Notes: generated by a model not told the origin, from the sequence alone. Shown: positions 7,262-61,808, counted from the first letter of the stretch. The stretch: 64,000 nucleotides of DNA from Eledone cirrhosa (GCA_964016885.1 OZ024742.1:110980001-111044000); one strand, 5' to 3'. A program made the numbers and translations.

Positions 7262-10135
7262 TACGGGATAACAAATTATCGTTATAGGCAATCCACTTAG
7301 AGGTAGTCCAGTTAGAGTACTCTGTGCTGTGGATGGTATTAACGTATGGCTTGGTTTGACTCAACAAGACGCTTCCATAGTGATGCAGCGAGTTCAAGTA
7401 ATAATAATTCAAGAGATTAGAGTAACATGGTTGTCTGTACAATAAGGGCTTTATTCACAGTACTGACAATTGTCTCTTTGATCTGGTAAGTCCTGAGTTC
7501 GCTAATCACTAGATGCTGCGTCAATCGAACTCCAATACTTTGTTTATAACCAGTTAATTCATCAGAGCCAGCGAATGTGAGGGTAATATACAAAGGAGGA
7601 GTGGTATTAGACTAGAACAATAATATCAATAACAAAATAACTAGATACTGAATAGTTAAATTAATAACATCAATATCAGTGAGAAATAGAATATAATGAT
7701 CAAATTATAAAGCTAGCATGGTAACCGAAATGATATGATACAGATGTATGAAGTTGACATGTGAAAACTACTATAGGTTACATTAGATGTAGTTTTTGAG
7801 GGATGAAGAGATAACTAATAAAATGTACCCAGAGTCAGATTTTTGGAATCTGCCCCTTTAAGTGCAATTATGAGGGATCTAGATACAAGTGTGCTGTGGG
7901 TCTAAAAGCACGCTAGCAATAAACCGGAGATTGATTTATGGTTTGATAGATAAGTATTTTCGTTGTATTAACTTAGTTATATTGATAGAGTGAGTGTATA
8001 AAGATATATGGTTATTAGGTGGTATTAAGTGAAATTGTAGATTCAGTATTTTAAGCTTTAGGTGGCTTATTTTAAATGTTGGGATTGTTAGTTCGAATCA
8101 TGGGGGTTTAGTTGTCACAACTTCGATGAAAATAGTGTATAATTAAGACAATAAATCAACAATAAAATATGCATGGTAAATAGAGAACATGATGAATAAA
8201 ATTAGGGATAGGGTACATTGAGATGATCATAATAGTAATAGTAAGAAAATAAGAAAGTAAGAGTTTCAAGGAGTGTAAGGGTAATAATATTATGTACTTA
8301 GAATTAGGTTCATCTGTGAGAGATCATGGGAGCTAATGTGAGATATGTAGATATAATTGTTGGGTCCGAAAGAATAAACAACAGCAAATGCTAGATTGAT
8401 TTATGGGCTGACATGATAATTGGTAGATGTTTGTAGATATTACTGTCCCATCTTGGTGATATAGATGTAGGGAGGCTGGAAGTTGTTTATAGTTCTGAGG
8501 TGGGCTGTGTGAGAATGCGGATTTCGTACGTTAAATTCCAAGTGATTTTCCATTGAGTTCGAGGATGCTGGTTCGAATCACGGTGGTTTAAATCTCGTAA
8601 ATTTAGTAGCAATCCTATGTCTGCAGAAAATTGTCTTTTCTATTTTGCTGTTAAGTAGCATGTTATCGTAGCTTAAGATATGTTGCAATACAAGTTTGCA
8701 GAGCCCGCAATGGTACATACCGCTGCTATAGGCCTTTGCGGCTGCTAATTTCGACCAGCTAATATTGTAATCAAGGTCCTTAAGTTGCCAGATTTTATTG
8801 GCGAGGGTTCTGGAATTCACCAGTGCACAGTTCTTCATTGAATGTCTGTGTACATACCGTCTTTTTTTAAAAACACCCGCGGTGGATCCAATGTAGTGCC
8901 AGGTGGAGTTGCCCTAGTTTACAGTACACATGTACACTAAGCTAGAATCCAGGCATCTATTCGCTAATGGGCACTTATCTGGTAGGTGGCAATTGCAGTT
9001 TGAAGTATTATTCTGTGCAGCTTTCGCATTGTGCTTCTGCAAATTGTTATGTGTGGGGTGCGATTCATGCCTATTGAAGTTTTGTTTTGGTGTGTTCCGA
9101 TGCGGGATTTAAACCACCGTGATTTGAACTAGCATCCCCGAGCTTAATGGAAAATCACTTGGAATTAAACTTATGAAATCCGCATTCTCACACAGCCCAC
9201 CTCAGAACTATAAACATCTTCCAGCCTCCCTACATCTATATGACCAAGATGGGACAGTAATATCTACAAATATCTACCAATTATCATGTCAGCCCATAAA
9301 TCAATCTAGCATTTGCTGTTGTTTATTCTTTCGGACCAACCAATTGTAAATAAACCACCTAAACTTTTCGGACCAACCAATTGTAAATAAACCACCTAAA
9401 CCTTAAATTATTGAATCTACAATTTCACTTAATACCACCTAATAACCATATATCTTTATACACTCACTCTATCAATATAACTAAGTTAATACAACGAAAA
9501 TACTTATCTATCAGACCATAAATCAATCTCCGGTTTATTGCTAGCGTGCCTTTAGACCCACAGCACACTTGTATCTAGATCACTCATAATTGCACTTAAA
9601 GGGGCAGATTCCAAAAATCTGACTCTAAGTACATTTTATTAGTTATCTCTTCATCTCTCAAAAACTTCGTCTAAAGTAACCTATAGTAGTTTTCACATGT
9701 CAACTTCATACATCTGTATCATATCACTTCGGTTACCATGCTAGCTTTATAATTTGATCATTATATTCTATTTCTCACTGATATTGATGTTATTAATTTA
9801 ACTATTCAGTATCTAGTTATTTTGTTATTGATATTATTGTTCTAGTCTAATACCACTCCTCTATAAAAGCCATGCTTTGTATATTACCCTCACATTCGCT
9901 GGCTCTGATGAATTAACTGGTTATAAACAAAGTATTGGAGTTCGATTGACGCAGCATCTAGTGATTAGCGAACTCAGGACTTACCAGATCAAAGAGACAA
10001 TTGTCAGTACTGTGAATAAAGCCCTTATTGTACAGACAACCATGTTACTCTTATCTATTGAATTATATACATATATATATTTATGTATTCGCGATCGTAT
10101 TCTTTCGGTCATTACTCAAGATTCATATATATATA
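7262..10135. mobile_element. Head-to-head inverted PLE 3' end (GIY-YIG on left arm, - strand)
   Basis: 8578-9010 (-) encodes CNCHLPDKCPLANRCL, LVYMC, HYIGST, LANKIWQLK and CGLC. The ~1 kb 3' UTR (7262-8595) is repeated inverted at ~9105-10135 with an internal deletion. Both ends abut short (TA)n. Confidence 0.85.
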
Positions 10136-10332
10136 TAATAGCGAATATGAATAAACGAAGTTAATTTTAACTTGTTGACTTACACTCCTTTATATATATA
10201 TATATGTATTATTCAATGTAAGAAAGTTGGTTGATCAAAAATCTGCCACCTTATTCTTAAACAGACCTGAAGCACTACATGATTTTTGTTCCTTAGGATT
10301 TTCCGAGTAAGGTAACATCTGGAGTTTTAGTA

Positions 10333-10681
10333 TAATAAATAAGACAAACGGTTTTATTCGTACATCTTTATTTTATTCGTTATACATATTTCGAAGATGT
10401 AAGGTAGTCATATAATAACCACACTACACGTTCTCTTCAGAGAAACAAGATGTAATTTTCCATTGATATGCTACCAGTCAGCTGTACTATTAACCTCGCC
10501 AATCAGTACTCATATGACGAAGTTAATAGCACGCGGGACTTGTACTATATCAATGGAAAATTACACCTCGTTTGTCTGAAGAGAACATGTAGGGTTGTTA
10601 TCATATGACGACTTTACATCTTCCAAATAAGTATAACGAATAAAATATAGATGTACGAATAAAACTGTCTCTTTTATTTAT
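10333..10681. repeat. Imperfect long inverted repeat (~135-bp arms) ending in (TA)n
   Basis: 10333-10469 is the reverse complement of 10547-10681 (e.g. ttttattcgtacatct / agatgtacgaataaaa). Confidence 0.75.
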
Positions 10682-10741
10682 ATATATATATATATATATA
10701 TATATATATATATATATATATATATATATATATATATATAT

Positions 10742-11180
10742 ATTGTTATACTTTGGGAGTATCATGCTGCCAATAAAAACACATTTCAGCTCATTATAAC
10801 TTTCCGGTTAGTTTAAATAAATAAATAAAAGCACACATACACACACACGGAGGTAACACATGCGCAACCTAAGCACACAACACGCAACACACAAAAACAA
10901 GATGGTGTTGGACAGAACAAAGGAGAGACACAACATAAAATCACAGTCATTGAGGAGATCATAGAATGTGGAACGAAATATTTTTGACAATATATAAACA
11001 CCCATCCGGTTATCGAACCAACAAGCAAACCAACCAACCAATCAACCAACCAACAAATGGAAATTTATAATAAACTGAAGTGAAAACCAACAGGGGTGTG
11101 TGTTTTTATTGGCAGCATTACCCTCCCAAAGTACAAGAATATATGTTTCAACACACGTTTCAGATAAGAAATCTTGCAAA
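10742..11180 (+). mobile_element. Neptune-like PLE pseudo-LTR remnant with short inverted end and degenerate hammerhead
   Basis: Homologous to the 3' ends at 31500-32005 and 51540-52025. Eroded hammerhead gtca TTGAGGA...GAAA...tgac at 10946-10988. Confidence 0.65.
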
Positions 11181-11321
11181 ACAGATTAAAAAACGAAGTA
11201 TATATATATATATATATATATATATATATATATATATATATATATATATATATATATATATATATGTAGGAGGTGAGTTTTATTGTAGTACAATAAAGCA
11301 CTCTACAATTTGTAGGACTAG

Positions 11322-11451
11322 AGTATACATAATATATAAGATCAAAAGATGGTTAAAAGAGTTCCATGTATTTTATTTGAAATGCGCATAATACAATACA
11401 TGGAACTCTTTTAACCATCTTTTGATCTTATATATTATATATATATACTTC
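11322..11451. repeat. Short inverted repeat between (TA)n tracts
   Basis: aatatataagatcaaaagatggttaaaagagttccatgtatt and its reverse complement. Confidence 0.75.
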
Positions 11452-60308: not shown

Positions 60309-60397
60309 ATTCTCGATAAAAGCAAGGGAAGTAATCTACGCGTTTCATTCTTGTTAGAAATCATCAGGACTACATATCCAGTGCTTTTATCGAGAAT
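60309..60397 (-). ncRNA. Type I hammerhead ribozyme (retrozyme family 1)
   Basis: Identical copy at +620 bp. Confidence 0.9.
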
Positions 60398-60720
60398 GAC
60401 ACAGCTAGAGACTTATAGAATACTTAGCTGTGTACAGGAACTGGTTTGAAAGAGCGGTTGCCGGTCCGGCAGAAATTAGAAATTGGAATTATCGAGAATC
60501 TAATTGTAATACGTGACGTATTCTATTCTATAGCGATTAGGTCTTCAAAATGTTTATTATAAACATACAGAATATTTTCGAATATTCTATGTCTATATTC
60601 ACATATATATCGCTATTTCAGAGCATTTATTCCAATTTCTAATTTCTGCCGGACCGGCAACCGCTCTTTCAAACCAGTTCCTGTACACAGCTAAGTATTC
60701 TATAAGTCTCTAGCTGTGTC

Positions 60721-60809
60721 ATTCTCGATAAAAGCACTGGATATGTAGTCCTGATGATTTCTAACAAGAATGAAACGCGTAGATTACTTCCCTTGCTTTT
60801 ATCGAGAAT
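60721..60809 (+). ncRNA. Type I hammerhead ribozyme (retrozyme family 1)
   Basis: attctcgataaaagca ctggatat gtagtc CTGATGA t ttct aaca agaa t GAAA cgcg TA^ gattac ttccct tgcttttatcgagaat. Predicted cleavage after 60781. Confidence 0.92.
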
Positions 60810-61030
60810 CTAATTGTAATACGTGACGTATTCTATTCTATAGCGATTAGGTCTTCAAAATGTTTATTATAAACATACAGAATATTTTCGAATATTCTAT
60901 GTCTATATTCACATATATATCGCTATTTCAGAGCATTTATTCCAATTTCTAATTTCTGCCGGACCGGCAACCGCTCTTTCAAACCAGTTCCTGTACACAG
61001 CTAAGTATTCTATAAGTCTCTAGCTGTGCC

Positions 61031-61119
61031 ATTCTCGATAAAAGCACTGGATATGTAGTCCTGATGATTTCTAACAAGAATGAAACGCGTAGATTACTTC
61101 CCTTGCTTTTATCGAGAAT
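61031..61119 (+). ncRNA. Type I hammerhead ribozyme (retrozyme family 1)
   Basis: Identical copy; predicted cleavage after 61091. Confidence 0.92.
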
Positions 61120-61808
61120 CTAATTGTAATACGTGACGTATTCTATTCTATAGCGATTAGGTCTTCAAAATGTTTATTATAAACATACAGAATATTTTCG
61201 AATATTCTATGTCTATATTCACATATATATATATATAAATATGTATATATGTAAATAAACATATATATATATATATATATAAATGTAGTAGTTCTATTTA
61301 AATTGTTGGGATACAACAAGCAAACTAGCCCACTATTCAACAAGCAAACAAGCTCACTATCCACGAGCTTCCAACAGAAATGGTCGTATTCTTTAAGCGT
61401 ATGTCAATATTTATTTATAAAACTGATCTATTTTATATTTTATCTGATGAAAGCACACCATAATTTAACTTCGTCTCCTTGAAATATGTATAATGAAATA
61501 AATATGGTTTTATAAATATAGTTTCCATTTGTTAATATATCGTATATATATATATGTATATATGTATATATATATATATATATGTGTGTATATATATGTG
61601 TGTGTGTGTGTAAATATATATATATATATATATATATATATATATATATACATATATGTATATAAATATATATATATATATATATATATATATATATATA
61701 TATATATATATATATATATATATATATATATATATATGTATATAGGATTTTACACATTCATTCATATATTTGAACCCACCATACACACGTATATATATAT
61801 ATATATAT

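Follow-up and report, generated by a model that had tools for sequence, protein, structure and literature searches.

Retrozyme insertions of Eledone cirrhosa share a two-site, head-to-head footprint with Penelope-like elements

Metazoan retrozymes without long terminal repeats (LTRs) have been described as tandem non-coding units with a type I hammerhead ribozyme, low GC content and thousands of copies. Cervera and de la Pena (2020, PMC7229834) proposed Penelope-like elements (PLEs) as their partner, judging by co-occurrence and by the type of ribozyme, and homology to the PLE pseudo-LTR (pLTR) in Xenopus backs this partnership (Li, Clavereau and Pollet 2026, bioRxiv 10.64898/2026.07.22.740005). 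The layout of PLEs, an inverted 5'-truncated copy with a one-sided tail, has long been known, and the pLTR suffices for their mobilisation in trans (PMC3846280; PMC8557442). Work on PAc, the Poseidon element of an anole, showed that both strands of AT-rich DNA are cut and extended (Frangieh et al. 2024, PMC11167929). Its reverse transcriptase (RT) starts at two internal sites, which delimit the tail and lie elsewhere than the point of ribozyme cleavage; this signature was described as exclusive to PLEs, and a dimeric protein is predicted. In the literature searched, the enzyme that moves animal retrozymes and their use of circular RNA have been proposed without demonstration. In this paper, a window, meaning the whole stretch of 64,000 nucleotides analysed (GCA_964016885.1 OZ024742.1:110980001-111044000; G000:C3:110980001-111044000 in our numbering), was examined in the 3.0 Gb genome of Eledone cirrhosa, and its two retrozymes, A and B, were compared with the PLEs of the same genome. 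The results indicate that both retrozymes are probably pasted in by a borrowed PLE RT/GIY-YIG protein, with both cut strands primed on one, probably circular, RNA.

According to self-BLAST, sequence inspection and domain search, the window is rich in (TA)n runs and retroelements. As seen in Table 1, seven of its insertions are displayed with corrected boundaries. All seven are head-to-head inversions, as the first-pass annotation had stated, with the left arm sense on the minus strand, the right arm sense on the plus strand and the 3' ends pointing outward (self-BLAST, sequence and mapping). The outer ends run into (TA)n on both sides in 6 of the 7, again as described; the exception, at 50924-52024, is flanked instead by a 10-12 bp direct repeat, AATTTATTTC(AA), which is a target-site duplication. 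Three boundaries were wrong and have been moved (10135 to 10066, 11180 to 11199, and 14400 to 14334), while the inversion calls stand. The start at 14334 matters because the additional 66 bp are the tail found on one arm only; the (TA)n run at 14292-14333 is common to PLE14k and retrozyme A. With these corrections, the two arms of each insertion stop at different sites, a proximal one called X and, further 3', a distal one called Y. At the inner junctions, the arms of retrozyme B overlap by 1 nt, and a 13-nt filler (13651-13663) lies between those of retrozyme A. The microhomology strings quoted earlier are present (CACATATATAT at 61220-61230 and ACTTATAT at 14284-14291), but the ends do not simply lie at a TA-rich match. 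The longest TA run of retrozyme A (10 nt, phase 138) is not used as an end site, the TA match at site Y of retrozyme B is just 2 nt, among 42 possible sites, and the choice of X or Y is not determined by TA match alone.

Table 1. Coordinates of the retrozyme, PLE and comparison features in the window
Feature	Position	Strand	Details
Retrozyme B, left arm	59552-60489	-	3.0 units of 310 bp; outward end Y (monomer phase 165); adjoins (TA)n
Retrozyme B, right arm	60489-61230	+	2.4 units; outward end X (phase 139); adjoins (TA)n
Retrozyme B hammerhead, one of five type I motifs	60745-60787	+	CUGAUGA..GAAA, palindromic CGCG loop III; predicted cut after 60781
Retrozyme A, left arm	13023-13650	-	1.46 units of 429 bp; outward end Y (phase 274); hammerhead core at 13327
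Retrozyme A, right arm	13664-14291	+	Outward end X (phase 214); hammerhead core at 14045
PLE7k, Hydra-like PLE, head-to-head	7263-10066		Left arm (-) ends at Y (7263); right arm (+) ends at X (10066)
Older PLE31k relative, pLTR-only inversion	10742-11199		Left arm of ~41 bp ends at X; right arm ends at Y; from DNA similarity
PLE14k, Hydra-like PLE inversion	14334-16921		Left arm (-) 14334-15267 ends at Y; right arm (+) ends at X; tail 66 nt
PLE31k, Neptune/Nematis-like PLE inversion	30957-32005		Left arm (-) 30957-31086 ends at X; right arm (+) ends at Y
PLE31k inversion, non-microsatellite site	50924-52024		Left arm ends at X; right arm ends at Y
Short fold-back family	5476-5672, 11528-11687, 20625-20958, 48175-48370, 54200-54346		Self-BLAST, genome pairs
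Control 1, ~660-bp non-coding element	18007-18669	+	3' end resembles the RTE-type LINE end at 19310-19735

Each full retrozyme unit (310 or 429 bp) carries a type I hammerhead motif, for which self-cleavage is predicted from the fold and the variant pattern; the common variants of retrozyme B lie at N7, in loop II, or preserve pairing. The motif of retrozyme B resembles those of the axolotl in its one-pair helix III, palindromic tetraloop and U-U at the base of helix II. An Rfam scan of the window gave no hammerhead and only microsatellite-driven microRNA matches, and HH9 matched another retrozyme B copy weakly (19.2 bits, E 0.074; gathering score 52 bits). No LTR arrangement is seen, and neither array holds an open reading frame (ORF) of 120 aa, microsatellite read-through aside, or a PLE protein match on its arms. 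The unit of retrozyme A is slightly above the 170-400 nt range given in PMC7229834.

Genome-wide counts were made by exact sequence patterns, which favour young copies. The hammerhead pattern of retrozyme B has 4177 exact matches. The first 100 motif matches form 12 arrays, chosen regardless of their ends, comprising 9 X+Y inversions, 1 single arm and 2 unclassified arrays; together with the window copy, 23/23 outward ends lie at phases 130-167 and adjoin TA. End-specific patterns detected 1255 X-type and 1314 Y-type ends. Within the stretch of contig C1 common to both end lists (196 ends), all 62 head-to-head pairs are X+Y, with 0 X+X and 0 Y+Y (X on the left in 29, Y in 33; binomial p 2e-19 against a 50:50 null). 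All 40 of these pairs that were fetched are single insertions, one of them doubly inverted. Among the first 20 of the 72 unpaired ends, a complementary arm was present in 15 and a single arm with microsatellite on both sides in 5. From these counts, about 87% of retrozyme B events are estimated to be inversions. The longest arm has 27 units (L189). In one retrozyme B array (L092-L093, G000:C1:43586904-43593787), the units are 308 bp and two variants recur every 7 units. In another (L094, 2399-2670), 272 bp of GC-rich foreign sequence lie between the arms, with no match among the fetched loci or Rfam.

The motif of retrozyme A has 4464 exact matches. Its ends were scored by hand, as a motif-based automatic scorer was swamped by microsatellite matches and dropped. 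Among 50 loci plus the window, 28 inversions were scored, 24 of which have both ends at X (phase 214) or Y (phase 274), and 23 of these 24 are X+Y. One locus, L109 (1304-4365), was considered as a mixed PLE/retrozyme insertion, and this was rejected: retrozyme A sits inside the ORF of a Hydra-like PLE, probably with a 9-bp duplication, and was later duplicated in inverse between (TA)n runs.

The same rule is observed in the PLEs. Both arms of PLE31k were seen in 13 of 22 distinct insertions (30 loci), all 13 of them X+Y, and 4/4 longer pairs bring this to 17/17. For PLE14k the count is 13/13 X+Y in 30 loci, with two longer insertions besides, and for PLE7k 13/13 in 25 loci. A short fold-back family in (TA)n, which the first-pass annotation had not listed and for which no ORF or autonomous parent was found, has the same X/Y ends in 25/25 classifiable cases among 31 pairs. 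Overlapping loci of one insertion were counted once. Additionally, L232, a duplicate with an N gap, was left out of the haplotype, inner-end and divergence counts and L181 out of the junction counts, and L273 and L048 were not scored as inversions, though probable. Two PLE14k fold-back stubs 930 kb apart (L175 and L177, counted once) have an identical junction in opposite orientation, and therefore the stub was duplicated or moved as a unit.

In the PLE31k copy at 30957-32005, which has a tail of about 55-58 nt and a hammerhead core at 31745, the GIY-YIG frame (31075-31536) matches PF01541 at 24.8 bits (cut-off 22.6); a match above cut-off was also found at 51078-51506. A near-full-length family copy (L243, 857-4638, minus strand) has RT and endonuclease (EN) in one frame, with weak RVT_1, and its two frames are split in an Asn/His-rich low-complexity region. 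Sites X and Y of PLE31k fall in the first 30 ORF codons of this copy, as in PAc; they lie in pLTR and ORF start. PLE14k and PLE7k gave no Pfam match and are assigned to EN+ PLEs by motifs and tblastn among themselves. Hydra-clade marks comprise a CxCx5C linker, CxxC and CxH near the last EN motifs, and (TA)n targets (PMC8557442). PLE14k has CSCRKPEAC, CGLC and CPH, with RT and GIY-YIG frames on its right arm at 15306-16681; PLE7k has CNCHLPDKC, CGLC and CRH, and its window copy shows a tail of 141 nt, an inversion junction near 9100 and a broken GIY-YIG frame with the CxCx5C linker at 9078-8617 (minus strand). The PLE31k linker, CIDKKCITC, fits the CX2-5CxxC before GIY-YIG of Neptune/Nematis. 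These clade labels rest on linker motifs compared with PMC8557442, not on a tree, and PLE31k may be Neptune or Nematis. A hammerhead in the pLTR was seen for PLE31k and for PLE14k family copies; no intact core was found in PLE7k or at 10742-11199.

Evidence on the template comes from the arms themselves. Among 51 retrozyme B insertions with both arms above 100 bp, arm-wide variants are concordant in 135/137 comparisons and in 40/42 informative insertions; shuffled arms are concordant in 18%, with a maximum of 40% in 2000 shuffles. Insertion-private variants are present in all units of both arms, e.g. 88T in 24/24 units of L215. The inner ends are scattered over the monomer, only 2/104 falling within 5 nt of the predicted cut site, and the arms overlap at the junction in 38/52, most by 1-8 nt. 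Because the arms share a haplotype and their inner ends ignore the ribozyme cut site, one template, probably circular, is suggested; a single RNA molecule for both arms is quite likely, and its circularity is favoured with more reserve. An initial impression, that right arms start 16-18 nt after the cut site, was not upheld genome-wide. Arm lengths show at most a weak correlation (rho 0.24, p 0.09, n 52), and single-sequence folding revealed no fold common to X and Y. Three sequencing runs of unrecorded type assemble the monomer as one looped contig of 340 nt, an outcome that tandem DNA gives as well, so that a circle is indistinguishable.

The alternative that survives best keeps the PLE machinery and replaces the circle by a linear multimeric transcript of a parent array, or by two RNAs of one source locus (dual priming). 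A homogeneous parent array or one dominant source locus would also give one-haplotype arms, and some arrays are internally mosaic (L092b, L094, L099). Moreover, the main in vitro substrate of PAc is uncut RNA (PMC11167929), and 8 of 9 Xenopus retrozyme dimers were uncleaved in vitro (bioRxiv 10.64898/2026.07.22.740005). However, linear copying only shortens arrays, yet arms of up to 27 units exist; the private variants of L215 occupy every unit of both arms; and the strict one-each use of X and Y suits two adjacent sites on one RNA. A linear or dual template is therefore considered unlikely.

Two LINE (long interspersed nuclear element) controls show which part of the footprint is diagnostic. 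Control 1, whose label as RTE-type we take from its motifs and its 3' end, has 21478 pattern matches, a single 3' end and microsatellite flanks, and is rarely inverted. It adjoins (TA)n in 15/30 loci and (ATGT)n in 8/30, where the (TA)n background is 6.9% of 30-nt windows. Control 2, the 3' end of an apurinic/apyrimidinic-endonuclease LINE, has 15461 matches and a (GAT)n tail in at least 16/30 rows. Among 100 listed copies each, close minus/plus versus plus/minus pairs number 21 versus 2 for PLE31k and 16 versus 0 for PLE14k, compared to 0 versus 2 for control 1 and, for control 2, 0 versus 0 within 3 kb and 3 versus 1 within 6 kb; this count misses L1-style inversions without 3'-end duplication, of which locus inspection suggested about 2 in control 1 (L062, L065). 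A generic inverted-repeat test was positive in 18/30 PLE31k, 3/30 control 1 and 12/30 control 2 loci. It was not used as the main measure because the control 2 positives are for the most part 75-90% matches to nearby opposite copies or to other fold-back elements in the tail, and L296 may be a true 5' inversion.

Contact with (TA)n exceeds the background, but since the RTE-type control also adjoins (TA)n, such flanks are not diagnostic of PLEs. The signature that the first-pass annotation attributed to retrozymes and PLEs in common thus holds for the inversions, but not for a PLE-specific (TA)n bias; the diagnostic mark, which that annotation had missed, is inversion with a one-sided tail and two fixed sites used one per arm, not microsatellite bias. 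The retrozymes themselves lack tails of the LINE type, and most copies are inverted, with their ends in (TA)n. LINE-type tails or duplications, or a lack of (TA)n and inversion bias, had been named beforehand as the contrary outcome. They are also unlike an RTE- or R4-type SINE (short interspersed nuclear element), having two internal end sites and no element-encoded tail, compared to the single 3' end of both controls. The suggested comparison of flanks and inversions by family was run for retrozymes, PLEs and the two LINE controls, which do not include R4 because an R4-like pattern matched only the window's own copy.

Could another RT, such as an RTE or R4 LINE with L1-style twin priming, move the retrozymes, (TA)n being only a common soft target? 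PMC7229834 mentions LINEs as other candidate partners, one RTE-like ORF appears to be intact (L241), and control 1 does adjoin (TA)n or (ATGT)n in 23/30 loci. Against this stand the one fixed 3' end of the controls, with no close head-to-head pairs, the (GAT)n tail of control 2, and the form of L1 twin priming, in which internal sequence is deleted and one arm lies at the tail (PMC2837659), as opposed to overlapping arms at fixed sites. This explanation is very improbable, having been largely refuted by the two controls, neither of which is R4.

Still less probable is an origin of the inversions at the DNA level after insertion, by fold-back repair or inverted duplication in microsatellites, or as assembly artefacts. 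Inverted repeats are hard to assemble (N gaps occur in L011 and L232), and the inverted duplication of L109 does look like a true event of this type. Fold-backs, however, are symmetric, whereas the two arms here begin at phases that bear no relation to each other and stop at separate fixed sites. The controls in the same microsatellites are not inverted, the older families with 3-5% arm divergence obey the same rule, target-site duplications enclose whole inversions (50924-52024; L124), and in contigs of run X2, possibly the source sample itself, TA is joined at 60920, the position of site X. Equally remote is the view of the arrays as multimerised pLTR stubs copied in cis from an autonomous PLE outside the sample, not independent parasites: 24/57 Xenopus retrozyme families match known transposable elements, mostly PLE pLTRs (bioRxiv 10.64898/2026.07.22.740005), and X and Y of PLE31k sit in pLTR and ORF start, but no PLE ORF adjoins a retrozyme arm in 120 loci, the nested insertion aside, and a PLE transcript does not consist of as many as 27 monomers in pure tandem. 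The retrozymes may be of pLTR origin and mobilised in trans thereafter. Helitron mobilisation was rejected, as Helitron ends follow other rules and the inner ends here are variable and the arms opposed.

Insertion by PLE machinery is accordingly held to be highly probable, because the arm geometry and the two fixed end sites of the retrozymes match those of the genome's own PLEs. Mobilisation in trans, as claimed by the first-pass annotation, is supported by this genome-wide end pattern, with the trans action itself deduced; that PLEs and retrozymes share one window is not evidence for it. A PLE protein would bind the retrozyme RNA in trans and cut both strands of the self-complementary (TA)n. 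The two protomers of a dimer would then start on the same RNA but at different sites, one using X and the other Y, and each cDNA would run round the template a variable number of times before the two are joined by microhomology. About 1 event in 8 would give a single arm. The stretch from X to Y is what the literature on PLEs calls the 'tail', bounded by the two positions at which RT starts. In a more general form, for which the chances appear even, PLE integration would be an obligate two-site reaction: a dimer would hold one RNA at two programmed starts, one per strand, with two simultaneous rolling-circle reverse transcriptions on retrozyme circles, and the retrozymes would be viroid-like circular parasites keeping the hammerhead and the two-site signal. 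Immediately ahead of Y, TTCC/TCCC occurs in the two retrozymes and the two Hydra-like families, and not in PLE31k; together with the palindromic loop III, this post hoc hint suggests that the signal is possibly tuned to Hydra-clade enzymes.

Several observations weigh against this reading. Neither monomer is homologous to the eight PLE-type stretches of the window (best E 0.49), no partner PLE family was found, and in the 120 loci screened no retrozyme arm is fused to a PLE ORF except by nesting. None of the PLE ORFs encountered is fully intact (L243 carries a frameshift, L250 stops), though intact copies were not searched for. Median arm-to-arm divergence, a clock whose exact-pattern sampling is biased to young copies, overlaps between retrozymes and PLEs, which speaks for the reading: it is 3.6% for retrozyme A, 3.8% for PLE14k and 5.0% for PLE7k, and 0.1% for retrozyme B and 1.0% for PLE31k. 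Retrozyme B, however, is younger than every PLE family measured. Exceptions to the rule also occur: a Y+Y insertion (L150) and four inversions with one non-standard end in retrozyme A, and one discordant variant each in two retrozyme B insertions (L209, L234). Tails here measure 26-141 nt, beyond the published 30-40 bp, and PAc starts in vitro are reported to be non-homologous to the cut DNA, whereas the X/Y sites here have a TA match of 1-8 nt. Finally, the samples come mostly from one contig and lean towards young copies.

Among the known systems, ORF-bearing PLEs share head-to-head inversion, a tail at one end only, (TA)n targets (Hydra, Naiad) and occasional target-site duplications of 8-10 bp (PMC3846280, PMC8557442). 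The tail is 'often' present, or optional, on one end in those accounts, whereas the one-each use here is near absolute and extends to ORF-less repeats. PAc belongs to a different PLE clade, and no one-each rule, single-template evidence or retrozyme substrate is reported in the accessible sections of PMC11167929. In L1 twin or dual priming, both target strands likewise prime and the 3' ends point outward, but there the second site varies and the arms are free of overlap (PMC2837659); here, neither site varies, one sequence is duplicated in both arms, and inversion is the majority outcome. The accessible parts of the metazoan retrozyme accounts of 2020 and 2026 describe no head-to-head arms, two fixed end sites or one-template arms. 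The footprint on retrozymes was not found in the literature searched, including the accessible part of the review PMC11722881, a search that did not extend to subscription papers and supplements, which could bear on novelty. The PLE partnership was already proposed; the two-site, one-each footprint on retrozymes and the shared arm haplotypes are the new part.

Alu was linked to L1 by evidence of this type; here, it takes the form of a mechanistic mark that is specific to PLEs, is carried by retrozyme insertions and was compared with controls. The one-each rule and shared haplotypes also account for two PLE features noted long ago, the inverted arm and the tail at one end. Moreover, X and Y are exact RNA coordinates open to mutation in an existing in vitro system.

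Several other features of the window were also detected. At the inversion junction of the PLE31k copy at 50924-52024, stutter repeats of 12 and 60 bp (ACCTGTAAAATA) lie at 51132-51249, which suggests repeated template slippage while the arms were joined. The segment 10095-10130 is a separate inverted match of about 40 bp to 7205-7245; the pair lies outside PLE7k and the (TA)n runs bordering it, and the same sequence follows a LINE tail in L301, suggesting that PLE7k inserted into an older small element. Hydra-like PLE pieces at 1558-2738 and 4004-5029 (minus strand), with a GIY-YIG frame upstream of an RT frame on the same strand and a hammerhead-like core on the opposite strand at 2793, are probably a partial tandem. 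A broken Helitron lies at 25238-28763 (plus strand), with PF14214 and PF05970 above cut-off. LINE fragments, presumably R4-like, RTE-like (one with C-terminal zinc fingers) and others by their motifs, are found at 36425-38032 (minus), 40399-41031 (plus), 18754-19308 (plus) and 38582-39944 (plus), interleaved with (ATGT)n-flanked copies of control 1.

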